Positions 15,239 to 39,157 of a stretch of DNA of 64,000 nt are shown piece after piece. The position numbers and the translations under genes are program-made. Each line of letters begins with the position of its first letter. Positions within the stretch are counted from its first letter, which is position 1. Below the pieces are notes generated by a model. That model was not told the DNA's origin. It saw nothing but the letters and a program-made list of their open reading frames with translations, and did not search any database. This DNA is from Thermoplasmatota archaeon (GTDB lineage Archaea > Thermoplasmatota > E2 > JACPAO01 > JAHFTW01), in the NCBI GenBank assembly GCA_041601615.1, contig JBFIHX010000002.1, forward strand, positions 286,840-350,839, read 5' to 3'.

Positions 15239-15337
15239 CGCCGTGGGGCCTGGAGGCCTTGGGGTTTGGGGAGAAGGACCTATGCGCCCCATGCTCCATG
15301 GAGGCCTGTGCGAGGCATGCGAGGAGGAGCCGGGACC

Positions 15338-23843: not shown

Positions 23844-23871
23844 GCTAGACTAGGCCTAGGCTTGACCTAGG

Positions 23872-24219: not shown

Positions 24220-24288
24220 GCGGCACGGGAGGGGGAGGGGGATGAAGGGATTGCGAAAGGGGCCAGGGGCACCTGTGGGCAGCGGGGA

Positions 24289-25425: not shown

Positions 25426-25473
25426 CCCCTGAGAGCGTGCGCTCCCATCCAATCGTGACAGGGCGGGGGACAT

Positions 25474-25489
25474 GGATAAATGTTCTCTG
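25474..25489 (-). promoter_or_regulatory. Putative BRE-TATA for ftsZ (CAGAGAACATTTATCC on -)
   Basis: Purine-rich stretch followed by TTTAT ~50 nt upstream of the probable start. Confidence 0.4.
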
Positions 25490-25495
25490 GGAGGT
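25487..25495. repeat. Target-site duplication CTGGGAGGT (left)
   Basis: Identical to 37774-37782; abuts the left TIR. Confidence 0.9.
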
Positions 25496-25510
25496 ACGAG
25501 CGTTTCAAAA
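25496..25510 (+). repeat. Left terminal inverted repeat ACGAGCGTTTCAAAA
   Basis: Reverse complement of 37759-37773 is ACGAGCGTTCCAAAA. Confidence 0.9.
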
Positions 25511-25604
25511 TTGGGGGAGCCTCCACGGCATGGTTTTGAAACAGCATCCCCTGCCTACGGCTCCAGGGTGCAAAGGCTCAAAATCAAGCTTTTAATGGGT
25601 AACC

Positions 25605-26066
25605 ATGGACTTAATCACGCTGCTCCAAAGAGTGGAGGCGTCCAATCCGAACAACTGGTTGACCCACGAAGGTGGAATCCACGTCTTCAAGGAAGACCTG
25701 AACGTCAGGTTGGTTGAAGACCGGGAAGACGAAGATTTCGGAATGGCATACGGGGCGAACTGGCTGCCCGAGGGCTTCCCCTATGAGGCGCAGCGAATCA
25801 CAGCCGGACTCTACTATGGCCTGAGTCTTGTTCAGGTGTTCACCTTGATTCAGATTCAACACCCGTCCTTTATCCTCCCTGCCCCCAACCCCGAGGGCGA
25901 AGACCCCACGAACTGGACGACAACGCGACTAAAGGTGGCGGTAGCGCACATCCTGAATGGGCCCGCCAACGACATACCCGCAATGCCCCAAATTGAGGCC
26001 ACTCTACAACAGTACGGCGTACAAATCGAGGGCCCCCATCATCCGCGCACCTTTGCCATGGGCTAA
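25605..26066 (+). CDS. Hypothetical protein at the element's left end, convergent with the transposase
   Basis: 153 aa; TTTTAAT just upstream; stop 1 nt from the transposase stop. Confidence 0.7.
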   Translation: MDLITLLQRVEASNPNNWLTHEGGIHVFKEDLNVRLVEDREDEDFGMAYGANWLPEGFPYEAQRITAGLYYGLSLVQVFTLIQIQHPSFILPAPNPEGEDPTNWTTTRLKVAVAHILNGPANDIPAMPQIEATLQQYGVQIEGPHHPRTFAMG

Positions 26067-26067
26067 C

Positions 26068-27423
26068 TTAGATTCGAGCATGGGGGTACTCTCCCCAAAA
26101 CCGATTTTGCAGCGTGTCGAGGCTTTCCCACCCCTCAAGCCGAGCCACGCCGCCTTCGAGCTGAATTTCCTCGTCGCGGACGTGGCTGACGTACACCAGC
26201 CGCGTCAGGTTGTACACCAGCGCCATGCACAGCAATTCGTTGCGCTGTGCCACTTCGCCCCGCGAGTATAGCCGATCTCCGAGTATGCGCTTCAGGGCGG
26301 CGTTTCCGGTCTCTACGTTGTTCTTGCGGTTGGCTCGGGCGTTGTACCCGTCCCGATCCACTTTCGACCGCTGTAAGGCGTCCTTGAAGGCTCTGCGCGG
26401 TCCTCGGATGCCGTTTCCGGTGGCATTTTTCTTGAATTTCATTTGCCCGTCGATGCCTTGGCGCTTCAGGTAGTCGAAGAGGTAGCCGGCAGAGTACGCT
26501 TTGTCGCCGCCGTACTCCTTGAAATTCAGCATCAATTGCGCCCGCATCAGGAGCGGCACGGCCCATTGGGCTTCCCCGAATCCGCCTTTCTGGGTGCGCA
26601 ATCCGGCGATCATGGTGTATTCGTAGGTCCACAAGATCACGGTGTACATCCATTCATGTTCCCGGCGATCCTCTTTTTTCTCGTGTTTCTCCTGGTAGTA
26701 CGCCCCAAAGTGCTGCGTCGTCAAGCCGGTGCCGTCCTGGTGCGCGATGGACTCATAGGGACGAACTGGCCACGTTGACAACGAGAGCAATTTCTCCAAG
26801 ACCTCGGTTGACTCTGGATCATTCAGGAACCGGCTCAAGGTCGCAGCACTGACAGGCCCATACGGGTTGTGTCTGCGGTGCGTGGCGTCTTGCATTACGC
26901 CCTCTAAGCGCCGCAAATTCTGCCGATTCCAAACCCGCATCACCGATTGATACACGAGCGCATGAAGCGGCGCCGGTGGACGCCCCTTTACTCCCGGCGC
27001 GAGTGGTTCTTCAAGGACTGGCAATGCCGAGCGCAGCAACCGCGCCAACAACCTTGGCACCATTTCCGGGCAAGCCTTCCAAGCTCGGGCCTCTAAGCCA
27101 TGATCTCGGGGCCGGTCGCCCTTGCGGTACACGGTCGCGGCCGTGTTGGGCAATTCTGTCATTCCTTCGTAGAGCATCACAACGAGAATGTGGGCGCACG
27201 GCTTCTCTTGGTTGTGGTCGTGGCCGTCTTGGGCGCACCGCAACAAGTCGCCGCGACGGTACACCTTGACCCGGTGAACGCCTTGGTGCCGGCGCACGTT
27301 CCAATGGTCCGGGTCCATTTTTTGAACCGCATCCTCAAAGCCCCAGATCGTCAAGGCGTTGCGGCGCAAATTCGGGTTTAATCGGTTCCAGAAATCCAGG
27401 GCTTCCAGGGTTTCTTCGTCCAC
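26068..27423 (-). CDS. DDE transposase (IS4/IS5-like) with N-terminal SWIM-like Zn finger
   Basis: C..(n)..PCAH SWIM-like motif; QDGTG (D), GDKAY (D), RKNNVETGNAALKR (E, YREK-like), RNELLCMALVYNL; GTG start overlaps the upstream TAG. Confidence 0.88.
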   Translation of the reverse strand: MDEETLEALDFWNRLNPNLRRNALTIWGFEDAVQKMDPDHWNVRRHQGVHRVKVYRRGDLLRCAQDGHDHNQEKPCAHILVVMLYEGMTELPNTAATVYRKGDRPRDHGLEARAWKACPEMVPRLLARLLRSALPVLEEPLAPGVKGRPPAPLHALVYQSVMRVWNRQNLRRLEGVMQDATHRRHNPYGPVSAATLSRFLNDPESTEVLEKLLSLSTWPVRPYESIAHQDGTGLTTQHFGAYYQEKHEKKEDRREHEWMYTVILWTYEYTMIAGLRTQKGGFGEAQWAVPLLMRAQLMLNFKEYGGDKAYSAGYLFDYLKRQGIDGQMKFKKNATGNGIRGPRRAFKDALQRSKVDRDGYNARANRKNNVETGNAALKRILGDRLYSRGEVAQRNELLCMALVYNLTRLVYVSHVRDEEIQLEGGVARLEGWESLDTLQNRFWGEYPHARI

Positions 27424-27665
27424 TACGGGGCACCCCCCAAAGCAAGCATAACCAGCTCTTTTCCGCCAAGGGCAAGGCCGAGGATCGTCACGGTCCACAA
27501 GAGCCGACGAATCAAGCCCAAGTGCGCCTTCAACGCCGACTCGCGGACCTCGCGCAAGTCCTCGCGGACCTCGCGGCGCAATTCCCCGACCTCGCGCTCT
27601 AGGTTGCGGCGCAAGTCGCGCATTGCCTCCAATAGCCGCATATCCTCCACGGTTAGCCGCTCCAA
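27423..27665 (-). CDS. Coiled-coil + C-terminal TM protein (XhlA/holin-like architecture)
   Basis: LRRNLEREVGELRREVREDLREV heptads then LLWTVTILGLALGG. Confidence 0.6.
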   Translation of the reverse strand: MERLTVEDMRLLEAMRDLRRNLEREVGELRREVREDLREVRESALKAHLGLIRRLLWTVTILGLALGGKELVMLALGGAP

Positions 27666-28132
27666 GTGTCCGTGATGTCTTCGAGCAAAACGTACCCCCC
27701 GGCACTGTGGGGCGTTAGGAGGCTGGCGTTGTGCGCCACGAGATCAACCACCACGGGCGAAGCGCCCCCGGAGTTGTCCACGAGAATGAAGTCGGTGATC
27801 ATCCCGCCGCCATAGGTGCGGGTGTACGTCTCCGGCTCCGCCGCTCCATTCACTTCGACCCGGAACCAATCAACATCGAGGCTGTCAGGGCTGACCGCGT
27901 ACCCGAAGACCTTGAAGACCGCGCCAACCGGCACCGAATACGATGCCACAACCGCTTGATCGTTCACGGGCAACGGGACAAGGGAGCCCTTGCCGCGCCG
28001 GACCTTGCGTTCAACCACTGACTTGATGTGGACGCTTCCAAGGGTGCCGTCCGGGCGCTCCTTGAGGCGCCCGTCCCAATCCACATACTCGCCCGTGTCG
28101 GGGTCGCGGATTTGCTGGATACTGTAGCCCAT
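27653..28132 (-). CDS. Putative virion structural protein (beta-rich)
   Basis: 159 aa within the coupled operon; alternating hydrophobic strands. Confidence 0.6.
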   Translation of the reverse strand: MGYSIQQIRDPDTGEYVDWDGRLKERPDGTLGSVHIKSVVERKVRRGKGSLVPLPVNDQAVVASYSVPVGAVFKVFGYAVSPDSLDVDWFRVEVNGAAEPETYTRTYGGGMITDFILVDNSGGASPVVVDLVAHNASLLTPHSAGGYVLLEDITDTWSG

Positions 28133-28306
28133 TCAGGGGCCTCCGATGCGGTTGATTCCGGGGCGGGGCGTGTATTGCCGGCACGACGCGGCGAGGGTCG
28201 TGCTTGGAATGTAGAACCCCAACGCGGAGCAATAGGGCACGGGCAACAAGGCGCCGGCTCGGCGTGCGCGGGTGTACCACTCGCAGGTTTTGCAGTCCAA
28301 ATCCAT
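28133..28306 (-). CDS. Small Cys4 protein (57 aa), not in ORF track
   Basis: MDLDCKTCEWY...YCS...SCRQY; TGA-ATG junctions on both sides. Confidence 0.7.
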   Translation of the reverse strand: MDLDCKTCEWYTRARRAGALLPVPYCSALGFYIPSTTLAASCRQYTPRPGINRIGGP

Positions 28307-28948
28307 TCAGGCCCCTCCCATGAAGATGCCCTCGCCGTAGCCGGCTTGCCGGGTGATGCGCTGGAACTGGAACGTTACGCTTGGGCCGTGATTGGTGATT
28401 TTCAAGAGCCGCCATGTTAGGCCCGATGTGGGGCTAAAGGCGTAAGCGGCGTAGGTGTCGCCCGTGGGCAAGTAGGCCACGACGAGCCCGTTCAAGTCCG
28501 ATCCGGCGCCCGAAAACAAGCCTTGGGTGGTTTCTCCGATGAACTGGATTCGGACTTGCCGCAACGGTTGGCCCGCTACGTCCACGGCGTACCCGACAAG
28601 CGTGGTTCTGTCGCCTTGGCGGTAGACCGCCGTGGGTCTGATTTCGCGGCTTGGGTGCCTTGATCCCGAGGCGTTGGCAAGCCACGCGCCGAGGCTGGCC
28701 ACGGGTTGCCCTGGTGTCTTGGAGGTCCAGGTGTTGCCGGTTTCGTGATCCATCCACCCTGCGTCTTCTACGTAGGAAGGGGCAAAGGCGTGGGTTCCGC
28801 CGTGGGGGTATGGGGGCGTGGCGCTTTCTTGGCCCGGGATGAGGTTCGGGGCGTTGTGGACGGTGCCGGATTCGGGGCCGAGTTCGCCACTAGTGGCGGC
28901 GTTTTGGTTTCCTTGGGCAATGCCCGTGTAGGTGGCCAATGCGTTCAC
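28307..28948 (-). CDS. Putative spike/receptor-binding protein (C-terminal carboxypeptidase-regulatory-like domain)
   Basis: GTGA overlap start; LVGYAVDVAGQPL...SDLNGLVVAYLPTGDTY. Confidence 0.55.
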   Translation of the reverse strand: MNALATYTGIAQGNQNAATSGELGPESGTVHNAPNLIPGQESATPPYPHGGTHAFAPSYVEDAGWMDHETGNTWTSKTPGQPVASLGAWLANASGSRHPSREIRPTAVYRQGDRTTLVGYAVDVAGQPLRQVRIQFIGETTQGLFSGAGSDLNGLVVAYLPTGDTYAAYAFSPTSGLTWRLLKITNHGPSVTFQFQRITRQAGYGEGIFMGGA

Positions 28949-29916
28949 CCCTGCCTGATTGCTACGGTGATGTAGGCGGTCGAGTCCGGGCTTTGCAGGG
29001 TCTTGACGAGGTACGTCTTTGTGACCGCGTCGTCCACCCAATCCACTAGATCGCCGTCTGCTAGTCCTTGGGCCAAGGCGACGACGAACCACCGCTTGGT
29101 TTGGGCAATGGGGATTCGTTTGTTGGTGTCTAGGTTGTTGCTAAAGTGTGGGAAATGGAAGTAGATTTTCGAGTTCCCGTCCGAGCGGTAGGCGCTGCGA
29201 AACAGTTCAACACCGGCACCATAGGCGACGGTTTGGGTGTTGAATGGTCGAATGTACTCCTTGCGGTTCAGGTCGGAATAGTTGCCAACGGCGCTAACTT
29301 GGCCGGTGCTGTTGTCGAAGTATTGGGCATAGTATCGGTCGTACCAATTGCCCCCTGTGGAGTACACAATGTTTGGGTCGCTGTTGGTCCATGCGGTAAC
29401 AAAGAAGTTGGAGTATCCGTCGGGATATTCCTTCTCGGTGTTGCGCTCCAAGGACAAGAAAGAGGTGTAGTCGTGCGCTGGACTGGCCATCCAACTGGAA
29501 AGGACGGTGAAGCCCTCGGCGTCTAGCCACATCCAGTATTGGCCGGCTTTGTCACCGCTACCGGCTCCAGTGGCCCAGTAGTAGTTCTGGGTCCATGAAG
29601 TGCCGTAGCTTTGCCAAGATTCCGTGGGGATGCCCGTAATTTCGACGGTGCCGCTTGGTGATGAGGTTCCAAGGTCGTAACCACTGGATACGGTGACGCG
29701 GATTTCGTTGAAGCGGTTGTACCCGGAACTACTGACGATTCGTTCGACGCTGACAAAGAAGCCGTCCGCGATGTGTTCGAGGGCTCGGCGGGCGGGGCTT
29801 ACGGCGGCGGGCCGGCCCGTGGGGTCGGCGTCGCTCCATGCGCCCGTGGCGATGAGGTCGTCTGCGATCTTGTCGGTGAGTTCGTCCATTGTTGTGTTTC
29901 CGCTTGAGAATGTCAT
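28945..29916 (-). CDS. Putative vertex/spike structural protein
   Basis: 323 aa, S/T/G/Y/W-rich, in the structural operon. Confidence 0.6.
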   Translation of the reverse strand: MTFSSGNTTMDELTDKIADDLIATGAWSDADPTGRPAAVSPARRALEHIADGFFVSVERIVSSSGYNRFNEIRVTVSSGYDLGTSSPSGTVEITGIPTESWQSYGTSWTQNYYWATGAGSGDKAGQYWMWLDAEGFTVLSSWMASPAHDYTSFLSLERNTEKEYPDGYSNFFVTAWTNSDPNIVYSTGGNWYDRYYAQYFDNSTGQVSAVGNYSDLNRKEYIRPFNTQTVAYGAGVELFRSAYRSDGNSKIYFHFPHFSNNLDTNKRIPIAQTKRWFVVALAQGLADGDLVDWVDDAVTKTYLVKTLQSPDSTAYITVAIRQG

Positions 29917-29922
29917 GAGGGG

Positions 29923-30333
29923 TCACGCTCCCGAGATGTGGAGTTTGTAGCGTTGCCCGGTCTCCGTCGTGTTGGTTACGACGGCTTCCAGGCTGTCCGA
30001 AAATCGAAGAGGGCTTTCCTTGCGAGTCCAGCGTAGGACGCCGGCTTCGTCACCATGCGAATACCGCTTGACCGAGCCGTCCAAGGACAGGCTTAGGGTA
30101 ACGCCGGGGGGCAGGTGGATATTGTAGAGTAGAATCTCGCCCGATCCCCGGTAGGTCAAGACGCGGCGCTCCCCGGCGAAGAGTTGCGGGTTGTCGTTGG
30201 CACCGGGAGAGTCGATCTGGAACGGGTGCGCTCCGTCTCCGGCTAGGTCTGCGATGCCTTCCCAGACCGTCCCCGCGAGTTCTTCCCGAGTCACGGCGCG
30301 GGGCCGGGGTTCTCGAATGGCTATGAGTGCCAC
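29923..30333 (-). CDS. Putative minor capsid/penton-like beta protein
   Basis: 136 aa beta pattern (YRGSGEILLY, VTLSLSLDG, LRFSDSLEAVVTN); function inferred from position. Confidence 0.45.
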   Translation of the reverse strand: MALIAIREPRPRAVTREELAGTVWEGIADLAGDGAHPFQIDSPGANDNPQLFAGERRVLTYRGSGEILLYNIHLPPGVTLSLSLDGSVKRYSHGDEAGVLRWTRKESPLRFSDSLEAVVTNTTETGQRYKLHISGA

Positions 30334-30497
30334 CCCCGCCGGGGTTTCTTGTGTCGTGGAACCCGAAGGTAGTGGGGGACGCGGTGTTTGGCTTGGAAGG
30401 CCGGGGCACGGCTCCGCTTGTATTCGTCGTCAAAGCGGGGGCCGTGGCCGGTGGCGGTGAAGCCGTCGCGTTGCGGTTCGCGGCGTTCCTTGGCCAT
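30321..30497 (-). CDS. Small basic protein (58 aa), candidate DNA-binding core protein; not in ORF track
   Basis: TAATG overlap start; MAKERREPQ...RVPRHKKPRRGWHS. Confidence 0.6.
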   Translation of the reverse strand: MAKERREPQRDGFTATGHGPRFDDEYKRSRAPAFQAKHRVPHYLRVPRHKKPRRGWHS

Positions 30498-30901
30498 TAC
30501 GAGCGACCTCCAAGGGTCAATAGGCCAACGACCAGCACCGCACCGGCAGCGACGACCACAACCGTGAGCTTGCCTAGCTCTTGACGGTCATTCTCTTGCG
30601 TCGTTGCGGGGGGCTGGCCGAAGGCGTTGAAGAGGCCAGTTTTGCGATCAAAGAGCACCCATGTTTCGGGCACTCCGTCGCCGTTGGTATCCACGGGGGT
30701 CTTGTCAAGTGGGGGATTGACGGCGCGGCTTACGTCGTCAGCCACGTTGCCCACTTGGTTCAAGAGAAGCGACCCACCGCCAAGGGCCGCAAGGGGGAAC
30801 ACGGCGGGCTTTAGGACGCGGCCCGCGCCGCTACTAAACCGCATGAATCCGCGACCAAATCCAGCAAGATTCGAGGCCCGAACCGCTGGGGCTGGACTCA
30901 T
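30497..30901 (-). CDS. Virion membrane protein
   Basis: Hydrophobic segment, DTNGDG Ca-loop-like motif, C-terminal TM; ATGA overlap. Confidence 0.65.
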   Translation of the reverse strand: MSPAPAVRASNLAGFGRGFMRFSSGAGRVLKPAVFPLAALGGGSLLLNQVGNVADDVSRAVNPPLDKTPVDTNGDGVPETWVLFDRKTGLFNAFGQPPATTQENDRQELGKLTVVVVAAGAVLVVGLLTLGGRS

Positions 30902-31887
30902 GAGACGAGCCCCCGGAAGAATTTCTTAGTGGACTTGTAGCCCGAGGAAACGGCGCTACTCGTGTCCTTGGCGGCGTCCCTTGTGGCGTTGACCACGCTT
31001 TCTTGGACGGTGCCCCGGTAGGCTTGGCGAAGGTTGCCGCGCACCGATCCACGACCAACCACGCCCGTCGCCACCGCGCCAACAGCGGCAAGGGGCAAGG
31101 CTACGGATTTGACCGCGACTTCGGCTTCATGTTCCACGGCTTTCGGAGTTAGGAATGCAATGGTTTTCTCGGCGGCGTTGCCCCGATCTAGGGCGTCAAG
31201 GGCGCCGGATTTTTCGAGCACGGCAGTTCCGCCGAGGCCAAGGGCCACGCCGGCAGCGGCAGCCCCACCGTAAGCAACGGGCGGGGCGCGAAGAAGCGCG
31301 GTGCTGCGAGTTGCAAGGTTTCCAAGTCGTGCGGTGCGCGTGGCGTTTTGGACGCCAAACGCATTGAGCCGGGATTGGGCGCCGCCCTTGGCCACGGCTC
31401 CGGCGCCGCCGCGAAGGAGGCTTGCGCCGCCTCGGGCAATGGCGCCCCCGGCGCTCTTGATCAGCGGGGCACCAAACGCTAGAGCAAGGCCGACGTTTGC
31501 AAGATCGGCAACTTGGCTAAACCTGGATGCACTCGCGGAGTCGGATGCGATTTCGTTGTTGATGCGGCGTTGTTCAGTTTCATTGGCGGCGTTGGCGCGG
31601 CGCAATTCGTCAAGGACGGCGGATTCGTATTCGGGACTAAACGCGGGCCCAAGACCCCCGCCTTGGGAACTCGCTTCGGGGTTTGGGGGGTTGGAATAGT
31701 CGTAGTATTGGCCGGTGCTTGGGTCGTAGGCATAGGCGCCGTCGGAGAGTCCGCCAAAGCCGGCGCCCTGTCCGCCAAGACCGGGGGCCGTTGGTTGCGG
31801 GCCTTGGTTGGCTTCGACTCGGGTGGCGGCGTAAGCGAGGCCCCCGAGTCCGATGAGGCCGAGTGCGATCAAGGCGGTTCGATCCAT
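30898..31887 (-). CDS. Ala/Gly-rich membrane-anchored virion protein (DNA delivery candidate)
   Basis: N-terminal TM MDRTALIALGLIGLGGLAYA, coiled coil, glycine-zipper segments; directly after the MCP. Confidence 0.65.
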   Translation of the reverse strand: MDRTALIALGLIGLGGLAYAATRVEANQGPQPTAPGLGGQGAGFGGLSDGAYAYDPSTGQYYDYSNPPNPEASSQGGGLGPAFSPEYESAVLDELRRANAANETEQRRINNEIASDSASASRFSQVADLANVGLALAFGAPLIKSAGGAIARGGASLLRGGAGAVAKGGAQSRLNAFGVQNATRTARLGNLATRSTALLRAPPVAYGGAAAAGVALGLGGTAVLEKSGALDALDRGNAAEKTIAFLTPKAVEHEAEVAVKSVALPLAAVGAVATGVVGRGSVRGNLRQAYRGTVQESVVNATRDAAKDTSSAVSSGYKSTKKFFRGLVS

Positions 31888-31892
31888 GAATC

Positions 31893-32750
31893 TCAAGCCG
31901 AAGCTTGGACCTCCAAGACCACCATGGTTAGGCTTCCGTTGGCTTCGGGGTTGGTGTTGACGACTAATTCGAGGGTGTCCATTCCCTTGGTTCGCAGGGC
32001 TTGCGATCCGTCCCCGAATACGTCGAAGTTGACGACGGCCCAATCCATGGGGGTTTCGTCCATCTCGAAGTCTGCGCGGTTTTCTTCGCGCAGTTGATCC
32101 CAGGGTTCGCGGGTGCGGTGAAACTTCACGCCGTCTTGGATCACGGACACCGACCGAAGCAAGGTCGGGGAGCTTGGGACCAAGAGAATTGCTTGGATCA
32201 CTTGGCCGTCTCGAATGTCGATCCCGGTTTCTCCTTCGACGCTTTGAAGATCCTTGTACACGGTCTTGCGCACGATCAAGGGGACTTTGCCAACGTCCTG
32301 GCCTTCGTTGATGATCTCGCGGGCGTAAATCGCCACGTTGCCGCCGACAATGGCGGTGTGATCCCCACCGGCGGCTTGCAGCTCATTGACTCCGGCAAAG
32401 GTAACGTGCAATTCGAGACTCGTAAACAGGAACGTTGGGAGCATCCCAAGGTCCAGGTACGCAAAGCCGAGGCCGGGGGCTTGGTCCTTGTAGGCGAGGA
32501 TGTTCAAGCGGCGTAGGTTCTCGAACGACAGGTTCGTGGTGGTCAGTTGTCCGCCGATCGTGAGTTCTATTCGCTTGATCATGCGGTTGGCGGCGTCTGC
32601 CGTGAACGCGCCACCAGATCCCCCCGCGAGGGCGCCGGGATTGACTTTGAGGCGAAGGCGGTTGAGAAAGTGCTGCCGTGGAATCGAGACGCGGACTGAT
32701 CCGCCGTCTTCGTATGGCACCACCTTGAACGGGCGCGTGATCACGGCCAA
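31893..32750 (-). CDS. Double jelly-roll major capsid protein (PM2/STIV-like)
   Basis: 285 aa with two internally similar halves: IKRIELTIGG..LRRLN and LRSVSVIQDG..LREEN, then VVNFDVFGD..ALRT..TLEL. Resembles PM2 P2 as recalled; downstream of the ATPase. Confidence 0.75.
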   Translation of the reverse strand: MAVITRPFKVVPYEDGGSVRVSIPRQHFLNRLRLKVNPGALAGGSGGAFTADAANRMIKRIELTIGGQLTTTNLSFENLRRLNILAYKDQAPGLGFAYLDLGMLPTFLFTSLELHVTFAGVNELQAAGGDHTAIVGGNVAIYAREIINEGQDVGKVPLIVRKTVYKDLQSVEGETGIDIRDGQVIQAILLVPSSPTLLRSVSVIQDGVKFHRTREPWDQLREENRADFEMDETPMDWAVVNFDVFGDGSQALRTKGMDTLELVVNTNPEANGSLTMVVLEVQASA

Positions 32751-32754
32751 GGGT

Positions 32755-32991
32755 TCACACTCCGCCGGCGATTCGGATTCCGGCCGTGACGAATCCGCCG
32801 CCGGCGCCGATCATGATGGTTCGGCCCCAGCCCTTGGATTTGTACGCAAGGGCGACGAGGGCGAGCCCGGCGGCGGCTTTCAGGGCGCCGTCGATCTTGG
32901 GGTCTGGATGGGAGGGAAGGGGGAGACGGGTTCCGTAGGCGCCGATGGCGCCCGATAGGGCCGTGCTGACGATTGCTTGGGTTGCGGTCAT
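32755..32991 (-). CDS. Small hydrophobic membrane protein
   Basis: 78 aa, 2-3 Gly/Ala-rich TM segments, GGAG upstream. Confidence 0.65.
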   Translation of the reverse strand: MTATQAIVSTALSGAIGAYGTRLPLPSHPDPKIDGALKAAAGLALVALAYKSKGWGRTIMIGAGGGFVTAGIRIAGGV

Positions 32992-32998
32992 TGGGGGT

Positions 32999-33202
32999 CT
33001 AAGGCTCCTGCCAATCGCTTGGCGGAAGACTAACGCGACGGCAGGCAACTTCTACCGTTACCCGCCCCCCTCGGGGCCTTTCTCGGTGCTTCTGGATCGA
33101 GTGGTTTAGCAATCCTTCCCAGGAGGGAAAGACGGGGGCCATCCATCCACGGGCTTCGCATTTGCAGCACAACCAACCAACGCGCCTACTGGCCAATTCC
33201 AT
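32999..33202 (-). CDS. Small Zn-finger protein (CxxC...HxxxxH)
   Basis: WLCCKCEARG...LLNHSIQKH; GAAGGTG before ATG. Confidence 0.55.
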   Translation of the reverse strand: MELASRRVGWLCCKCEARGWMAPVFPSWEGLLNHSIQKHRERPRGGRVTVEVACRRVSLPPSDWQEP

Positions 33203-33923
33203 CACCTTCAACAGGAGGGGACGGGGGTTGGTCGAGGGAGGGCCCCGAGGGGCCCCGAGGGGTCGCCATTGCTTTTCGGGGTTCGAGGCGGCAGGGTAGG
33301 ACCGCGCCTTGTTCGGCGCTCCAAAACGCAAAGTCTCCGATTCCGAACGACTTCATGCGCTGGACGGCCTCGCGTCCAAAGGCGGGTTCTAATGCGCGTT
33401 CGTCACCGGGAAAGGGCCGGGTGCTGACTCGGTAGGCTCCGGCGCCAAAGGTCAAGGGAATTTGCGCGAGGCGATGCGCGGCCCAGACCTTGGCTAGTTG
33501 GTTGGGTTTCTTGTGTCCAAGTTCTACGAGGTCTTGACACGCCGGGGGCAAGTCGCTAAGGCGCTTGGAGTCGGCGGTGATTCGTTGAAATTCGTCGGTG
33601 ACGACGACGGCCTTGTGAAACCGCATGGCGATTCGGCAAAAGTCGTTGTATGCCGAAAGGAGGGCTTCGCGTCCGGCGCTGCTTGGGGGGCTTGGCCATA
33701 CGACGAAGGGGGCTTTTCGGGCGGCGGCTTCCATTTCGGTGGCGGTGTGGACGACGACGGCAAAGTCGGCGTAGTCTGGTTTGGCGCCGCTTCGGGGTGG
33801 TGCGGCCCAGAAGGCGCCGCGTCCAATGCTTTGGGCCCAGGCGGCGATGAATGTGGTTTTGCCGGTGCCGTAGTCGCCGGTTACGAGGGCACTTTTGCCG
33901 GGTTCGAGGCTTGGAAGGTTCAC
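33186..33923 (-). CDS. Genome-packaging ATPase (FtsK-HerA/A32-P9 type)
   Basis: Walker A GDYGTGKT at the N-terminus, Walker B VVVTDE, LVELGHK, WAAHR; 245 aa, upstream of the MCP. Confidence 0.75.
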   Translation of the reverse strand: MNLPSLEPGKSALVTGDYGTGKTTFIAAWAQSIGRGAFWAAPPRSGAKPDYADFAVVVHTATEMEAAARKAPFVVWPSPPSSAGREALLSAYNDFCRIAMRFHKAVVVTDEFQRITADSKRLSDLPPACQDLVELGHKKPNQLAKVWAAHRLAQIPLTFGAGAYRVSTRPFPGDERALEPAFGREAVQRMKSFGIGDFAFWSAEQGAVLPCRLEPRKAMATPRGPSGPSLDQPPSPPVEGDGIGQ

Positions 33924-34093
33924 GCGGTTGGCCCCCCGTCTTTGGTGGCGTCGTGGAGTCGTTGCCGTAAGTGTTCGACGCGGCGGGGGTTGTGCTGGAA
34001 CCAGTCTTGGACGATGGGCTTGAAGTGGGTCCAGGTGGCGCCAAAGAGTTCGGCGCCTAGGTCGTTCACGATTTCTTGGAGGGTTTCAGTCAT
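33920..34093 (-). CDS. Small helical protein (57 aa), paralog B
   Basis: MTETLQEIVNDLGAELFGATW...; GGAGG upstream; stop overlaps the ATPase GTG. Confidence 0.7.
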   Translation of the reverse strand: MTETLQEIVNDLGAELFGATWTHFKPIVQDWFQHNPRRVEHLRQRLHDATKDGGPTA

Positions 34094-34259
34094 GGTCCCA
34101 GACCTCCAAGAGTTCGTGGGCGTAGTGTACGAGTTCCCTGGCTTTGCCGGGGTTTTCCCGCATCCATACCCGGAGGCGTCCGCGTAGATCGAACCAGTCG
34201 TACCCGAAGGCGTCCCCGGCGAGTTGATCCACAACGGCAAGAAGTCCCGCGTAGTTCAT
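34086..34259 (-). CDS. Small helical protein (57 aa), paralog A; not in ORF track
   Basis: MNYAGLLAVVDQLAGDAFGYDW...; ATGA overlap with the upstream gene. Confidence 0.7.
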   Translation of the reverse strand: MNYAGLLAVVDQLAGDAFGYDWFDLRGRLRVWMRENPGKARELVHYAHELLEVWDHD

Positions 34260-35290
34260 TCGGCAACGCCTCCGGCTTGGGCAAGTATTCCGTCCCAGTA
34301 TGGGTCGCCGGTGCCGCCGGTTTGGGGCTCGGGTTGATCTTCGGGTTCGGGTTGGGCGTCGTCGTTTTGGGGTGTGGTTTCGGGTGGGGCGCGGTCGGCG
34401 TAGATTCCTTTTCGACTGGCTACGAGCATTCCGAGGCTTGCGCCGCTGGCGATGAGGGCGGTAAGGGGGTGGTCGATGGGCAAGTCTGGAAAGTACAGGT
34501 CAAGGCAGGCGTGGACGGCGCGTGGAAAGCCCGTTTCGCGTACTTCGTCCACGTTCAAGGCGCCGTCTTCCTGTTTTCCAAGGGCCAAGCCGTTGATCAT
34601 GGCCGTTACGCCGCCGGCTATGATGGGTTCAAGGGGCACCTGGACGCGGGGCGCTGGCCGGGATTGGGTGGGGTCGCCGTTGGGGGTGTTTGGGTCGGGT
34701 AGGAGGGGGCCGACTTCGGGGGGTGGGGCAAAGGAGACCATGAGGGTCCCTGATTCTTCAGGAGTGGTGGGGTCTGGAATCGGGTTCGCTTCGGGTCCGT
34801 GGGTGGGTTTCGGGTTGGGTGGGGTTTGGGTCTCCTGTTGGGGCGTGTGTTTTGGTTCGGGTTGGGTTGGGTCTGGTGGGTTGGGTTCGGGTTCAATTGG
34901 GTCTAATCGGGTGGGTTCCCCTTCTGTTGGTGGTGGGTCTGGGTGGGTTGGTTCCGGGTTGGGTGTGGGTCGGGTCTCGGGTCGGGTGTTTGGGTCGGGT
35001 CCTCGGGACCCGGTGGGTGGGTGTCGGAGACCCGTTTTTGGACCCGATTTGGGTGGGTCTTGGGTGGGTTGGTTGAGCAGGGTGGCTAGGCCCGCGAGTG
35101 GGTCCATTTTGGGTTCGGGTTCGGGTTGTGTGGGTTGTTGGCGGTGGGTGTGGTGGTCGGTGTCCTTGCTCATTTGGACATGGGCGCCGAGTGCGCCGGG
35201 GTTGCGGAAGCGGCGTCCGCATACGGGGCATTGGTGGCGTGGTGGCCGGATTGGCCGTTTTTGGTCGGGGGTGGTGGTGTTTGGGGGCAT
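34256..35290 (-). CDS. C2H2 Zn-finger protein with long Pro/Thr/Glu linker and helical C-terminal domain
   Basis: HQCPVCGRRFRNPGALGAHVQMSKD; first large gene of the operon. Confidence 0.7.
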   Translation of the reverse strand: MPPNTTTPDQKRPIRPPRHQCPVCGRRFRNPGALGAHVQMSKDTDHHTHRQQPTQPEPEPKMDPLAGLATLLNQPTQDPPKSGPKTGLRHPPTGSRGPDPNTRPETRPTPNPEPTHPDPPPTEGEPTRLDPIEPEPNPPDPTQPEPKHTPQQETQTPPNPKPTHGPEANPIPDPTTPEESGTLMVSFAPPPEVGPLLPDPNTPNGDPTQSRPAPRVQVPLEPIIAGGVTAMINGLALGKQEDGALNVDEVRETGFPRAVHACLDLYFPDLPIDHPLTALIASGASLGMLVASRKGIYADRAPPETTPQNDDAQPEPEDQPEPQTGGTGDPYWDGILAQAGGVAE

Positions 35291-35499
35291 GAGCCTGAAG
35301 GCTCGGCGCGGTTTGACTGCCGGGTGGCGTCGAGGGTGCAATCAAAGTGGGTTGCAATCAAAGGGGCGAGCCGTCGCGGTTTGCGGCGGTCGTTGCTCAA
35401 GGTGGGTTTGCGTGTTTCCGGTTTGCAGTCAGGAGGGTTCGGGGGCACGGAGTCACCTAAGCAAGCCGTGACTGCGGCGGCTCGCCCAACTGACTTGAG

Positions 35500-35690
35500 C
35501 TGTCAATCAATCTATTAACTAATTGGTTGAATGATTGGACTATATTTCAAAATAACTAAAACTTTGCAGCAAATAGGACTAATTATAGAATATAAGTTCT
35601 TGTCGCCAATATTATAACTCTTAATAAAGTCATAACGATAATAAATCCTGATTGACTCGACTAATAAAACAAATTATATGGTGGGCAAGT
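35500..35690. promoter_or_regulatory. AT-rich control region upstream of the virion operon
   Basis: Abrupt AT-rich intergenic stretch with several TATA-like runs and TCAATC/GATTGA motifs. Confidence 0.5.
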
Positions 35691-35700
35691 TGGACAGTGA

Positions 35701-35785
35701 CGCGACGGGAAGGATTCGAACCCTCGGATTCGCCAGAATCGCCCGATCTTAAGTCGGGTGCAATAGGCCACTCTGCCACCGCCGC
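35701..35785 (-). tRNA. tRNA with anticodon UAA (Leu codon) and a Ser-like body
   Basis: GCGGCGG TG GCAG-AGTGGCCTA-TTGC A CCCGA-CTTAAGA-TCGGG C GATTC-TGGC-GAATC C GAGGG-TTCGAAT-CCTTC CCGTCGC G; all stems pair; TATA-like CTTAAA ~30 nt upstream. Confidence 0.9.
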
Positions 35786-36014
35786 AGTAGGGGGAGATAA
35801 CACCGCCCTGGCCGGTTTAAGCGTTGTTTTTTGAGGGCCATTTTCCCGTTTTGCATATGTTATTATACAGAATCTCTTTTACAACTACTAGCCAGAATCG
35901 CTCGACGCCCCCTCGCGGGGAAAACGCTCCCTCGGGAGCGGAGTCGGGGGCGGGGCGGGAAGTTGAGCTCACCTTTAGGGAGACGCGCCCGCCCCGTTTT
36001 TTCATTCACGGGGC

Positions 36015-36671
36015 TTATTGTGCCCCAGATTCAAACGGATTCGGAAGATTTGATTTTCCTCGCCTTTTTTTCGCCCCTTTACTGCCCCGATGGCTCACCA
36101 TATGGCCGTTTTCCCTTAGTTTTTTCCTCGCAATAGATTCGGAGCGGCGAAAACCTTTAGAATCTCTAGGCGTCTTTATATAATTAACTTGCCCAAATTC
36201 ATTCTGCACTTCCAATATTCTATCTCTCACTTTACAAAGATGCTGTTTATCCCCCGTAAGTGCGTGTAGGTAATACCACGCCGTTTGACTATCCGTAAAA
36301 CACCTAACTCGGCATGCTTCTGGATTCCGTAATATTTTTCTGGCTTCAAGCAGGCCCAACAAGATTGCCTCCATTTCAGCTTGATTAGTGCTGATACTGT
36401 ATCGGTATTTTCCAGATTCTGCTAAAATAACTCCATTTTCATTTACTACAATTGCGCCCATGCCCGAAGCCCCCCACTGGCCGGGTTTGCCCGATTTTGT
36501 AGATTTAGGTCGCATCTCTGCATCACTAAAAACAACCAATTCACGCACGCTACCCGGATGTCGGCGCCGGCCTTCATGCAATTTTGGCAAGCCGCTCTTT
36601 GGGGCTGGCCACACGGGCCCTAAATAAACAGGTATATTTTTAGGTTTCGTCATAATTGCTCCGAAAGCCAT
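36015..36671 (-). CDS. RNase HI-like protein (AT-rich)
   Basis: VVFSD, GASGMGAIV, TNQAEMEAILLGL, FTDSQ, KTPRD..RSESIAR. Confidence 0.8.
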   Translation of the reverse strand: MAFGAIMTKPKNIPVYLGPVWPAPKSGLPKLHEGRRRHPGSVRELVVFSDAEMRPKSTKSGKPGQWGASGMGAIVVNENGVILAESGKYRYSISTNQAEMEAILLGLLEARKILRNPEACRVRCFTDSQTAWYYLHALTGDKQHLCKVRDRILEVQNEFGQVNYIKTPRDSKGFRRSESIARKKLRENGHMVSHRGSKGAKKRRGKSNLPNPFESGAQ

Positions 36672-36695
36672 CAGTTGAATTCTTTGTAAAATATT

Positions 36696-36857
36696 TTAAA
36701 TATCAATTTTAACTGGTTTCAGATGGACTCCACCTTCATCTATAACCCACGCCAGATGATCCCCTTTTCCCACTTTCAGGGCCACCATTACTTCTTGTGG
36801 TATCCCCATTCTTCCTGACGAATCAATGCGCCGAATTTCTGTAAAGGGCAGCTTCAC
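36696..36857 (-). CDS. AbrB/MazE/SpoVT DNA-binding protein
   Basis: RRIDSSGRMGIPQEVMVALKVGKGDHLAW; GTG start inferred. Confidence 0.78.
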   Translation of the reverse strand: MKLPFTEIRRIDSSGRMGIPQEVMVALKVGKGDHLAWVIDEGGVHLKPVKIDI

Positions 36858-36860
36858 ACC

Positions 36861-37253
36861 TTGGGGGAATTGGCAACAGTGCATAAATGGCACCGGCGAA
36901 ACGTTGAATATGCCAGTCTGCCCATATGGGCAAATATGCATCAATGCAAACCTCCCGCAAGCGATGGCGACCCACACGGCCAAGATGACGCCAATCAGTC
37001 CCCCACCCAACATGACGAAAACACGGAGAACCCACGATTCGAGTTCACCTGTGACCAGCATTTGAATGGGCCGCGAATCAACCATTCCCATTGCAACACC
37101 AAGCTGTCCAAATGGCAACTGGTCGAAAATCCAGAAGAAGGCTCCATAGGAATTTGGGCGACAACATGCCCAAAGTGCAACACCTACATCACCGTCGAAA
37201 TGGAACTAGACCGATTCCCCGAACCTGCCATGAAGCCGCGAGGTGGCGACTAA
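36861..37253 (+). CDS. Small Zn-ribbon protein (start uncertain)
   Basis: HSHC...CPKC; stop overlaps the RHH start (TAATG). Confidence 0.45.
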   Translation: MGELATVHKWHRRNVEYASLPIWANMHQCKPPASDGDPHGQDDANQSPTQHDENTENPRFEFTCDQHLNGPRINHSHCNTKLSKWQLVENPEEGSIGIWATTCPKCNTYITVEMELDRFPEPAMKPRGGD

Positions 37254-37645
37254 TGGGTGCGGGTGGCGGTAATTTCCGACAAGCCGGGATACCGGCAGAT
37301 CTTGCAAAAGAAATCGTCTACCTGATCAAAGTCCACCCGCAACTTGGGTACCGAAGCTTGTCAGAATTTGCCCGGATCGGGATCATCGAGCATTTGCGCC
37401 TGACTCGGATGCAATTGGCGTTAGAAGCAATCTGGGCCACGGCCGAATTAAGCGCCGATGCTCTCGATGCCATGCTACGGGATTCCCTGCCTCCTGCCTA
37501 CATCAAAATTCTTGATAGCGCACGACCAAATGGAAAACCACCCGCTACTACGCCATATCCGCCCCATTACGGAGACAAACAGGGCAACCGGATCAGTCCA
37601 GTCTCCCCCTCAATCCGGGCGGAGTTAGACAAGCTAACGGGCTAG
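37253..37645 (+). CDS. Ribbon-helix-helix (CopG-like) regulator
   Basis: AGIPADLAKEI...LGYRSLSEFARIGI; GAGGTG RBS. Confidence 0.75.
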   Translation: MGAGGGNFRQAGIPADLAKEIVYLIKVHPQLGYRSLSEFARIGIIEHLRLTRMQLALEAIWATAELSADALDAMLRDSLPPAYIKILDSARPNGKPPATTPYPPHYGDKQGNRISPVSPSIRAELDKLTG

Positions 37646-37758
37646 ATTCACCCCGCCCCCAATTTCGGAACTCATTCCCCGAATCCGGCTTTGCGGGATT
37701 TCTCCTTATATCCCCTATTTTTGAAACCCGATTCCCTCATTCTGTAAGGCGGCTAGAG

Positions 37759-37773
37759 TTTTGGAACGCTCGT
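37759..37773 (-). repeat. Right terminal inverted repeat
   Basis: TTTTGGAACGCTCGT. Confidence 0.9.
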
Positions 37774-37782
37774 CTGGGAGGT
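37774..37782. repeat. Target-site duplication CTGGGAGGT (right)
   Basis: Identical to 25487-25495. Confidence 0.9.
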
Positions 37783-37820
37783 GTGCTTCCAGTGGGGCGG
37801 GTGGAGCGCAGGCGCCCAGT

Positions 37821-38078
37821 TCAGTCTCGACGCGTGGATGCGAGTTGCAATCGGTCACGCACGGTCAACAATCCGAGGAGGATGATGGGCGGCGCCACGG
37901 CAAACGACCACACCATGATGTCGCTGGGGGTGCCACCAAGCCACGGCAACGCCGCGATGATCAGAACGGAGGCAATCAGACTTTGTCCTGCAAGGTCCCA
38001 GGTTCGGCCCATGCGTCCACCCATGGAACCGGCCACTTCGAGCTTGTCTCCATAGAAACACGCTTCCGTCAGGTTCAT
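37821..38078 (-). CDS. Small 2-TM membrane protein (start uncertain)
   Basis: Two hydrophobic segments. Confidence 0.45.
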   Translation of the reverse strand: MNLTEACFYGDKLEVAGSMGGRMGRTWDLAGQSLIASVLIIAALPWLGGTPSDIMVWSFAVAPPIILLGLLTVRDRLQLASTRRD

Positions 38079-38102
38079 GCCGCCGGCTTGTGTGGCCGCA
38101 TC

Positions 38103-38843
38103 GTGCGCTTGGTGCGGGTATGGTCATTGCTGTTGTCGCTGGTGCTCAGCGTGTCCTTGACCGGCTGTGTGAGCGAGTTGTTGACGAGCGAGCAAGTGAC
38201 GGTGCGTACGGTCTCCTGTGCCGTGGTGGATCCAGCCGCAGGGCGCGGCGTCATGTTTGCCCTGCATCGGCAAAGTGGCGTCCAGCGCGTCCCCGTGGAG
38301 GCGCTTTGGGGCGTTGCCCAGGAGCTCGGTGACGCCGGCTTTGGCGACGATCGGTTCCAAGCGGCGGAAGCGGAGTTGTTGCGGGGCACTGGGGCGTGGT
38401 CGCTTGTGCGTCTGCAAACATGGGCCGAGGATGCTACGGTGCTTGACGACGCCCGCGTGACCATCCATGTGCTGTGGGTCCAATCCTTCGAGGAGGAAGA
38501 GCCAACGACCATGATGGTTGCGCCAGGCGTGGTGGCGGTTTCGGAAGCCGCCGTGGTCGCGGGGGCCCAGCGATTGGAGCGTTCCGAGGACTTCTTGGCC
38601 AGGGTCTTGCTGCTGCATGTCGTGGGCCATGCACTTGGCGCCGTCAACCAGGGCATTCCGCTCAACAGCACGAGTCCCGAATTGCAAGAGGGGCCGGCAG
38701 GCCATGAACCGGCGCTGGATTCGGTTTTGAACGTCGGCTGGGATCGTGTCCACACCATGCCGCATTCGAATGCTACCTACACGGGGTACTCGGCGGCGGT
38801 GCTTGATGATTGGCGGGCTGCGGCTCGGAGCGTGTGCCCGTGA
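38103..38843 (+). CDS. Lipoprotein, zincin-like with degenerate HExxH
   Basis: Lipobox LTGC; LLHVVGHALG...GHEP..DSVL. Confidence 0.6.
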   Translation: MRLVRVWSLLLSLVLSVSLTGCVSELLTSEQVTVRTVSCAVVDPAAGRGVMFALHRQSGVQRVPVEALWGVAQELGDAGFGDDRFQAAEAELLRGTGAWSLVRLQTWAEDATVLDDARVTIHVLWVQSFEEEEPTTMMVAPGVVAVSEAAVVAGAQRLERSEDFLARVLLLHVVGHALGAVNQGIPLNSTSPELQEGPAGHEPALDSVLNVGWDRVHTMPHSNATYTGYSAAVLDDWRAAARSVCP

Positions 38844-39022
38844 CGAAGCTCTATGAAGATGCACTGCGCCTTTCGATCAACGAGAATCTGCGCAACATCA
38901 GGACCATTCTCGAATGGGCCAAGGATGCGCCGGACCTGAAGGATGCCATCGCGCACTCGGAGCAGGCGTACCAGCTCTTGGGTGAGGTTGTGGCGAATTT
39001 GCGCGAGTTGGGCCGAGCGTAG
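38840..39022 (+). CDS. Small helical hypothetical protein
   Basis: GTGA overlap; amphipathic helices. Confidence 0.55.
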   Translation: MTKLYEDALRLSINENLRNIRTILEWAKDAPDLKDAIAHSEQAYQLLGEVVANLRELGRA

Positions 39023-39157
39023 CGAGGCGCCACTCGCGTTTGCCGCGGTGCGTGAGCGCCGTGTGCTGTGGGAGTTGGGTCGGGCGTTGCGGAGCGCCAC
39101 TCGCGTTTGCCGCGGTGCGTGAGCGCCGTGTGCTGTGGGAGTTGGGCCGAGCGTAGC
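39005..39157. repeat. 67-bp tandem repeat, ~2.3 units
   Basis: GAGTTGGGYCGRGCGTWGC at 39005, 39072 and 39139; the intervening 48-mers are near-identical. Confidence 0.85.

Follow-up and report, generated by a model that had tools for sequence, protein, structure and literature searches.

The 64,000-nt stretch of DNA analyzed here (hereafter the window) comes from a Thermoplasmatota archaeon whose genome assembly comprises 2.79 Mb in 30 contigs at 62% GC and includes an archaeal small-subunit (SSU) fragment. It holds a class II tRNA gene with the anticodon UAA, referred to below as the candidate, inside a 12.3-kb inserted element (Table 1). The candidate had been noticed in a first-pass annotation made from the letters alone, and the features listed there (a full cloverleaf, the anticodon loop CT-TAA-GA, G73, a GATTC/GAATC variable stem and one unpaired base on its 3′ side) are all present in the sequence. 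The tRNA is real: it matches Rfam family RF00005 over its full length (1-71) with 51.3 bits (E 4.3e-8; gathering score 29 bits), it is the sole Rfam match in the window at the gathering threshold, and it is the single gene that ARAGORN calls there, as Leu(taa). The conflict described in the annotation between a leucine anticodon and a serine-type identity is genuine as far as G73 and the variable arm are concerned, whereas the D loop, A26, G37 and the anticodon arm are Leu-like.

The tRNA gene is intact. All five stems pair, the tertiary bases U8, A14, G18, G19, U33 and the GUUCGAAUC T loop are kept, and G15 and C48 could make a Levitt pair. As in the host's own tRNAs, CCA is not encoded. ARAGORN draws an eighth acceptor pair, U(-1)*G73, which depends on the RNase P cut site. 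The eight other host class II tRNAs that were scored span 47.5–60.2 bits on the general tRNA model, and the candidate lies inside this span. The minimum-energy fold from ViennaRNA is not the cloverleaf (z -1.04), which lies 3.5 kcal/mol above it; genuine class II tRNAs of the same class show comparable gaps (median 8.6 kcal/mol for Leu and 3.0 for Ser), and minimum-energy folding was uninformative here on whether the sequence is a tRNA. The TATA-like box that had been placed ~30 nt upstream exists as the hexamer CTTAAA with an A-rich run before it, at -36 to -31 from G1 rather than at ~30, and could serve as a promoter element. Many host tRNA genes have a TATA-like box followed 10–13 nt later by GTCGGC, with leaders of varying length; the candidate has the box alone and, unlike most host tRNA genes, no T-run directly 3′ of the gene. 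The possibility, raised with the first description, that G73 or the anticodon is an assembly error was checked in contigs from sequencing runs X2 (35532-35785) and X3 (35412-36142), which span the whole tRNA at a depth of ~4. An error is unlikely since both match with 0 differences; X2 and X3 share their study with X1, possibly the source run. None of the runs listed as holding the stretch is on record as RNA, and they are labelled marine metagenome.

Table 1. Features of the element and the candidate tRNA, with the host LeuRS gene. Coordinates are those of the window unless a contig is named.
Feature	Coordinates	Strand	Details
Inserted element carrying the tRNA	~25495-37772		12.3 kb; ends uncertain by ~2 nt; empty site in congener G002
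Target-site duplication, left copy	25486-25494	+	TCTGGGAGG; 9 bp; junction alignment
Target-site duplication, right copy	37773-37781	+	TCTGGGAGG; 9 bp; junction alignment
Left terminal inverted repeat	25497-25511	+	CGAGCGTTTCAAAAT; 13/15 bases match the reverse complement of 37758-37772
Right terminal inverted repeat	37758-37772	minus	CGAGCGTTCCAAAAC; 15 nt, imperfect
DDE transposase-like gene	26068-27705	minus	545 aa; Pfam DDE_Tnp_1, 30 bits (cut-off 23)
Major-capsid-like protein gene	31893-32750	minus	285 aa; Pfam P2_C, 19 bits (below cut-off 25)
P-loop ATPase gene, candidate packaging ATPase	33186-33923	minus	245 aa; AAA_16 and AAA_22 below cut-offs
RNase H-like gene	36015-36671	minus	218 aa; 45% GC; Pfam RVT_3, 28.9 bits (cut-off 21.6); just upstream of the tRNA
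ORF with C-terminal AbrB/MazE-like domain	36696-37118	minus	Pfam MazE_antitoxin, 23.6 bits (just below cut-off 24.7)
Class II tRNA gene, anticodon UAA	35785-35701	minus	RNA 5′ end at 35785; Rfam RF00005 and ARAGORN
Acceptor stem			GCGGCGG/CCGUCGC; 7 bp including G4*U69; G1-C72; read from sequence
U8 G9			Between acceptor and D stems; read from sequence
D arm			Stem GCAG/UUGC; loop AGUGGCCUA, alpha 3 / beta 4; read from sequence
Position 26			A26; read from sequence
Anticodon stem			CCCGA/UCGGG, including G30-C40; read from sequence
Anticodon loop	35749-35751 (anticodon)	minus	CU-UAA-GA; G37
Variable arm	35726-35741		C + GAUUC-UGGC-GAAUC + C; 5-bp stem, 4-nt loop, one unpaired base each side, 16 nt
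T arm			GAGGG-UUCGAAU-CCUUC; 5-bp stem; read from sequence
Discriminator	35701	minus	G73
TATA-like hexamer CTTAAA	35816-35821	minus	-36 to -31 from G1, A-rich run before it; putative function
Host archaeal-type LeuRS gene	G000:C6:150492-153344		631 bits, just under the 648.5 cut-off

The description of the tRNA as element-borne holds. In contig C3 of the congener G002, window 22500-25494 is matched and, ~100 bp further on, the match resumes from window 37888 onwards; the junction alignment fuses the window up to 25494 directly to 37782, an empty site in which the duplicated 9 bp occur as a single copy (TCCGGGAGG). The empty site, the 9-bp duplication and the inverted ends identify ~25495-37772 as a 12.3-kb insertion. 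Its left terminal inverted repeat resembles the inverted terminal repeat GGCTGCGTTCCTAAAGCC of a related element, L038. Relatives of the element include two copies in genome G036, one of them the whole contig L038 (G036:C91, 12,432 bp) with 18-nt inverted ends, and the metagenome contigs L148 (12,443 bp) and L149 (12,381 bp). Synteny with these relatives spans window 26173-35230; the tRNA, the RNase H-like gene and the AbrB/MazE-like open reading frame (ORF) lie outside it, in an arm of 46–55% GC. A comparison of anticodons in homologous elements, as had been suggested, found no tRNA in any of the four related loci (L038, L039, L148 and L149), of which the L148 locus covers 11,358 of the 12,443 bases of its contig. 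The tRNA is cargo of this element copy only, in its non-conserved, AT-richer arm.

Two other readings were tried and rejected. Use of the tRNA as an integrase attachment site that is rebuilt upon integration was rejected because the element ends lie elsewhere, with a target duplication; parts and flanks of the tRNA recur in the window or genome only as 14–19-nt chance matches. A 28-nt "inverted repeat" (25491-25518 and 37711-37738) was dropped as the element ends because the real ends are set by the G002 empty site; the match between its halves more probably reflects a promoter-like TTTTGAAAC motif that the flanking genes have in common upstream. The TCCCC-N-TTTTGAAAC motif (25491-25552, 37711-37738) precedes the FtsZ gene, an ORF at 25605-26066 and an ORF at 37761-38843.

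Codon usage is evidence on tRNA identity that is independent of the tRNA itself, and here it favors leucine, whereas the identity rules discussed below favor serine. In the host, TTA makes up 250 of 273,352 codons (0.91 per 1000; 744 ORFs on three contigs), the rarest of the 61 sense codons in this sample and 1.0% of the Leu codons. Counting TTA in host and element had been proposed with the first description. The 11 conserved ORFs of the element contain it nine times in 2761 codons (3.26 per 1000), the highest element/host ratio of all 61 codons, and four element ORFs outside this conserved core contain it seven times in 691 codons (10.1 per 1000). The RNase H-like gene next to the tRNA does use UUA, as had been stated, with three TTA codons. 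TCA, which a Ser(UGA) ancestor of the candidate would have read, is enriched only 1.4-fold in the element. Under automatic ORF calling, this element has 13 TTA in 2848 codons (4.56 per 1000), and the four sister elements that lack the tRNA use TTA 3.5 to 15 times less: 4/3082 in L038 (1.3 per 1000), 2/3324 in L148 (0.6), 1/3378 in L149 (0.3, at the same 59% GC) and 1/1487 in the partial L039 (0.67). Nine TTA sites have an aligned homologue, and at four of them every aligned homologue has Leu: L262 of the capsid-like protein (3/3), L178 of the ATPase (2/2), L109 of the transposase-like protein (2/2) and L83 of the RNase H-like protein (2/2). Of the other five, one has I/V and the rest A/A, S/A, P and G. 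Though small and based on crude ORF calls, the counts point one way: TTA is handled as leucine by the element, in which it is commoner than in the tRNA-less relatives.

To place the tRNA itself, we compared it with all the unique Leu (53) and Ser (52) genes that ARAGORN called in loci fetched from the host and 100 relatives, the candidate excluded. The host has its own tRNA-Leu(UAA) at G000:C14:35799-35881, four further Leu tRNAs and four Ser tRNAs. Several parts of the candidate are Leu-like. Its D-loop alpha region of 3 occurs in 39/53 Leu and 1/52 Ser (the Ser type has 5), A26 in 10/53 Leu and 0/52 Ser, and G37 in 51/53 Leu and 6/52 Ser, while its first variable base, C, is found in 3/53 Leu and in none of the 52 Ser, all of which have U. 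The anticodon arm is identical at 17/17 positions to that of Leu(UAA) in most relatives and at 13/17 to that of the host Ser(UGA). These results do not bear out the earlier proposal of a Ser tRNA body in which a single substitution turned UGA into UAA, as the anticodon arm differs from the host Ser(UGA) at four of 17 positions and the D-loop geometry, A26 and G37 belong with Leu. Two clade-specific covariance models (Leu and Ser) built from the class stand in for isotype models, and here too the candidate scores slightly higher with Leu (57.9 bits) than with Ser (52.3 bits). For comparison, the five host Leu tRNAs reach 94–104 bits on the Leu and 41–52 bits on the Ser model, and the four host Ser tRNAs 36–63 bits and 84–98 bits, respectively, so that both models place the candidate at cross-family level, as they would an outsider. 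By plain similarity, its 5′ half is nearest to Leu(UAA) (34.5/41) and its 3′ half to Ser(UGA) (30.5/41). Overall identity is 56.5% to the host Leu(UAA) and 70.9% to the best relative, the nearest cellular Leu(UAA). Because it lacks features that define archaeal tRNA-Leu as well as features that define archaeal tRNA-Ser, the candidate is filed under neither.

The reading we prefer, tentatively and at somewhat less than an even chance, is that the candidate is a working UUA decoder that serves the element and delivers leucine. Many virus- and plasmid-borne tRNAs are thought to relieve codon bottlenecks. The candidate would decode UUA, and probably UUG through wobble, and so would ease the bottleneck that this rare codon presents to the element in a GC-rich host. 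Leucine delivery is needed for such a benefit because the TTA codons of the element often sit at conserved Leu positions, and the archaeal-type leucyl-tRNA synthetase (LeuRS) of the host would have to accept, at least partly, G73 and a non-canonical variable arm. The intact gene, its location in the element and the codon statistics are observations; expression of the tRNA and the amino acid it carries are inferred. The supply of a rare UUA codon had been offered as the alternative to mistranslation in the first-pass annotation and is the better-supported half of that proposal, as TTA is at once the rarest codon of the host and the most enriched in the element.

A number of results weigh against leucine. 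The assignment of A73 to tRNA-Leu and G73 to tRNA-Ser, on which the annotation had relied, is without exception in the comparison set: A73 is present in 53/53 Leu tRNAs, and G73, which the candidate has, in 52/52 Ser and 0/53 Leu. In all 53 Leu variable arms, one loop G and the U-C at the base are invariant; the candidate, with the loop UGGC and no U tail, lacks both. On the Leu model, the 57.9 bits of the candidate fall far from the 94–104 of real host Leu tRNAs, and one host Ser tRNA reaches 62.7. A position-wise Leu/Ser log-odds sum with the anticodon excluded places it at -33.5, on the Ser side (leave-one-out ranges: Leu 38 to 115, Ser -139 to -27), although this sum counts paired positions twice and has a single narrow clade as its basis. 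In Haloferax volcanii, the identity of tRNA-Leu is reported to consist of A73, the variable-arm loop (A47c G47d) and U47h at the base of the arm, and G73 of tRNA-Ser to be an anti-determinant for LeuRS (PMC9976931). The codon evidence has limits of its own, since it draws on few codons (9 and 7) and on crude ORF calls, two pairs of which overlap, and since one tRNA-bearing element is set against four without. Finally, the combination of the loop CUUAAGA with G73 is rare: 401 genomes of the phylum yielded two full tRNAs, one of them the candidate, and one fragment.

Much of the same evidence supports the closest rival, which we regard as possible but somewhat doubtful: a serine acceptor with a leucine anticodon. 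Seryl-tRNA synthetase (SerRS) ignores the anticodon and would charge the candidate through G73, G30-C40, G1-C72 and the long variable arm. Serine would then be placed at UUA and UUG in competition with the host tRNA-Leu(UAA), with partial Leu-to-Ser mistranslation or ambiguous decoding as the outcome. The earlier description of a Ser-type variable-arm geometry was correct. Leu arms are 13 nt long in 53/53 cases with stems of 2–3 bp and at least two unpaired 3′ bases in 52/53, and Ser arms are 13–17 nt with stems of 3–6 bp and one or two such bases in 50/52; the arm of the candidate, at 16 nt, 5 bp and one base, is in the Ser range of the class and outside the Leu range. Broken down by part, the log-odds lean toward Ser in the acceptor, D stem, variable arm, T arm and position 73, and toward Leu in the D-loop geometry, position 26 and the anticodon stem.

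The published identity rules agree with the serine side. Sequence-specific reading of the variable arm by LeuRS is described as unique to Archaea, G73 as a strong determinant for both SerRS types of Methanosarcina barkeri, followed by the weaker G30-C40, and A73-to-G73 swaps as able, in several contexts, to make Ser acceptors of Leu tRNAs (PMC9976931). The host has a single SerRS, of the bacterial type (Seryl_tRNA_N, 97 bits), in the ORF that contains G000:C8:24870-25190. On the published rules alone, serine is the better guess for the amino acid of the candidate since it has G73, G30-C40 and G1-C72 and neither of the Leu determinants, yet its anticodon is UAA and not the NGA or GCU of serine. 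The A73 rule is not universal, because the LeuRS of Streptomyces coelicolor tolerates A73G with 66–83% of kcat/Km kept (PMC6614811, Table 1).

Several observations speak against serine. The proteins of the element itself would be harmed, as TTA is most enriched there and stands at conserved Leu positions, and it is the tRNA-less sisters that avoid TTA, although avoidance would be expected where the tRNA is present if it made this codon harmful. For the same reason, the mistranslating weapon against AT-rich genes that the annotation envisaged fits poorly: the richest TTA user is the element. On the Ser model, the 52.3 bits of the candidate compare with 84–98 for the host Ser tRNAs, and its D-loop alpha region, A26 and first variable C are next to absent or absent among the Ser tRNAs.

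Searches for similar tRNAs bear on both readings. With a pattern that combined the loop CUUAAGA, class II spacing, the T loop GGTTCRAATCC and G at 73, the 401 genomes gave three matches: the host, an intact tRNA in genome G201 and a 3′ fragment in genome G061. The G201 tRNA (L155, 1468-1554; G201:C2) is a class II tRNA of 48.6 bits whose D loop and variable arm are of the Ser type; the clade models give it 63.0 bits for Ser against 44.0 for Leu. In its surroundings (L165), 2/14 ORFs have a Pfam match, and a loose pattern showed no A73 Leu(UAA) in the G201 genome, which is 78% complete. In the G061 sequence (L154; G061:C60, ~9623-9675), a class II tRNA is represented only by its 3′ portion, which runs from the loop CUUAAGA to G73 and has no 5′ half in front of it. 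This piece may be what is left of an attachment site and, as an incomplete tRNA, was excluded as a comparator. In IMG/VR, the G73 pattern matched six stretches, one of which is a class II tRNA(UAA). This tRNA (L172, 201-287) is the sole tRNA of record G492, a 42,444-bp sequence with direct terminal repeats in which 5/20 ORFs match PHROGs or Pfam. It scores 67.3 bits for Ser and 52.3 for Leu; a true phage tRNA-Ser(CGA), for comparison, scores 61.2 and 48.5. L172 shares with the candidate the 1+5+4+5+1 layout of the variable arm, the D stem, U8 G9, 16/17 T-arm bases and G73; the acceptor, anticodon and variable stems differ but pair, and overall identity is 69%, close to the 70.9% between the candidate and the nearest cellular Leu(UAA).

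Thus two tRNAs with the same loop and G73 score clearly as Ser bodies, which argues for serine. The virus carrying L172, however, uses TTA at 4.6 per 1000, and both TTA codons of its terminase-like gene stand at Leu positions kept in 43/45 and 45/45 homologues. Moreover, both tRNAs were found with a pattern that demands G73. The same pattern with A at 73 gives at least 120 stretches in IMG/VR against the one class II tRNA(UAA) with G73, and the G73 form is therefore rare. Among the 76 unique viral tRNAs(UAA) with A73 in the matches listed, at least 29 have a variable stem of at least 4 bp and one unpaired 3′ base, so the arm geometry of the candidate is not Ser-specific outside Archaea. The L172 and G201 tRNAs may be kin of the candidate or, just as well, rare anticodon mutants that arose independently from Ser(UGA) genes; where such a gene already has G37, as do 6/52 Ser tRNAs here, G35A alone gives the UAA loop. 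The searches fit either origin because the pattern itself selected the combination of G73 and loop. It seems rather unlikely that the candidate, L172 and G201 form a scattered set of virus- and transposon-borne, Ser-bodied tRNAs(UAA) that read UUA and UUG as serine.

Other searches gave little. A sequence search of the 100 relatives found no close relative of the candidate, patterns made for it had 0 matches in IMG/VR, where another pattern retrieved one unrelated phage tRNA-Trp, and one pattern had 0 matches in a metagenome collection. A pattern for the anticodon loop, variable arm and T arm matched 11 stretches in the genomes of 185,579 species, all Dialister repeats and no tRNA. A T-arm pattern led to five loci, namely L172 again, one phage tRNA-Ser(CGA) and three tRNA-Arg(TCT). 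No archaeal tRNA(UAA) with G73 surfaced in the literature, in which no search was aimed specifically at such genes.

A less probable, indeed unlikely, explanation is that the gene is tRNA-shaped and poorly charged or not charged at all, either as a decaying recent hybrid or in a non-decoding role such as a regulatory RNA tied to the AbrB/MazE-like neighbor, a decoy for a tRNA-cutting defense or a recombination substrate. The cross-family scores on both clade models, the mosaic look of a Leu(UAA)-like 5′ and a Ser(UGA)-like 3′ half and the missing T-run after the gene all speak for this reading, as do the searches, which found no close relative apart from L172 in IMG/VR at 69% identity, and the related elements, which manage without a tRNA. 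Allo-tRNA genes, too, are reported to lie often near toxin-antitoxin genes and may be regulatory (PMC5389517). Against it, every stem is free of mismatches and the conserved tertiary bases are intact, the general score is on a par with host tRNAs, and the sequence is identical in contigs from three samples; the anticodon fits exactly the codon that the element over-uses, and no repeat of tRNA parts marks an attachment site. It is very improbable that the resemblance to a tRNA is due to chance, or that G73 or the anticodon is an artifact of assembly or sequencing: the low depth in X2 and X3 is all that speaks for this, against the Rfam E-value, the lack of any other match in 64 kb and the two unaltered contigs.

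Phage tRNA genes and archaeal viruses with tRNA genes are known carriers of codon compensation. Like such tRNAs of viruses and plasmids, the candidate is the single tRNA of a mobile element and its anticodon fits the codon that the element over-uses most and the host uses least; unlike them, it lacks the A73 and the archaeal Leu variable arm expected for its anticodon, and it resides in a small transposon-like element that has a double-jelly-roll-like capsid gene rather than in a tailed virus. With canonical tRNA-Leu(UAA) of the same class it shares an identical anticodon loop, a stem identical to that of most relatives, a similar D-loop geometry and the T loop UUCGAAU, whereas the canonical form has A73, only 3 bp in the D stem, and a variable arm of 13 nt with a UUC tail and the invariant G in its loop. 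In Streptomyces, bldA, a tRNA-Leu(UAA), has a regulatory role. Like the candidate, it reads UUA in an organism of high GC content that hardly uses TTA, and the resemblance is limited to this. The bldA system is bacterial and chromosomal, and its natural tRNA keeps A73 (PMC6614811); unlike S. coelicolor, the host of the candidate has an archaeal-type LeuRS, for which recognition of the variable-arm sequence is reported (PMC9976931).

Serine-bearing tRNAs with leucine anticodons also have precedents. In the CUG-Ser yeasts, a tRNA-Ser(CAG) with G73, G37 and a clear Ser body reads a leucine codon, and the reassignment is genome-wide. A human tRNA-Leu switches to serine acceptance upon A73G (Breitschopf and Gross 1994, cited in PMC9976931). 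Compared with these eukaryotic cases, the body of the candidate is mixed and the TTA codons of the element are still at Leu positions. The bacterial allo-tRNAs combine a long V arm and G73 or U73 with Leu and other non-Ser anticodons, readers of UUA/UUG among them; insertion of Ser or Ala in E. coli is reported for them, and insertion of Ser is demonstrated there for a G73 form (Mukai et al., Nucleic Acids Res 45:2776, PMC5389517). The candidate is like them in its long arm, G73, non-Ser anticodon and link to mobile or antitoxin-like genes, but they are bacterial with an acceptor/T-stem architecture of 8/4 or 9/3 (PMC5389517), whereas the candidate is an archaeal tRNA with a standard 7/5 cloverleaf. 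Classification as an allo-tRNA was rejected because neither architecture is present: U8 cannot pair with C65, and the extra pair drawn by ARAGORN is U(-1)*G73.

Either amino acid would be unusual. Charging by the host LeuRS would mean that neither G73 nor a foreign variable arm bars a tRNA from an archaeal LeuRS, counter to the only archaeal rule set in print and to 53/53 natural Leu tRNAs of the class. If SerRS charges it, a virus-like transposon brings a natural sense-codon mistranslator into an archaeon, and this would be the first case in Archaea of a mobile element whose standard 7/5 tRNA changes the meaning of a sense codon, either in full or ambiguously. The conflict between anticodon and identity elements can be seen from sequence, and isotype models cannot settle it when the tRNA is foreign to the clade of the host.

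The remaining genes of the element suggest an affinity to viruses. The DDE transposase-like protein is ~49% identical to its homologues in L038 and L148 and is kept in related elements. The capsid-like protein is probably a double jelly roll: the AlphaFold2 model has low confidence (mean predicted local distance difference test score 57.8), and its top Foldseek matches, all double-jelly-roll proteins and thus in agreement with one another, are the capsid proteins of STIV, PM2, PRD1 and PBCV-1, with E-values down to 8e-11 and template modeling scores of only ~0.3. A profile of this protein found no relatives in IMG/VR. The P-loop ATPase matches a PHROG terminase-large-subunit family (E 4.9e-5), with no relatives in IMG/VR or phage records. 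For the RNase H-like protein, a similarity search returned only the self-match, and RNase H matches in PDB are weak. The carrier may represent an undescribed kind of element of ~12.3–12.4 kb, with a 9-bp duplication, short inverted ends and genes for a DDE transposase-like protein, a double-jelly-roll-like capsid and an ATPase. In a survey of double-jelly-roll viruses of prokaryotes (PMC5894146), tyrosine integrases are reported along with a single Cas1 case, and the word transposase does not occur in the main text.

Further repeats were observed elsewhere in the window. Two 186-nt direct repeats (12273-12458 and 15063-15248), 95% identical, surround a stretch of 51% GC that may be another insertion; the 565-aa ORF between them (13325-15022) has no Pfam match. 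A tandem array of two G-rich units spaced 144 bp apart (19619-19867) lies beside an H+-pyrophosphatase gene, and ~2.3 repeats of a 67-nt unit (39000-39157) are situated just upstream of an MMPL gene. Two long minus-strand ORFs, 51512-56488 (1658 aa) and 57435-62528 (1697 aa), are full of degenerate ~40-nt repeats rich in GTCGCCGTCG with an Asp-rich product, and a similar repeat occupies 62707-63968.

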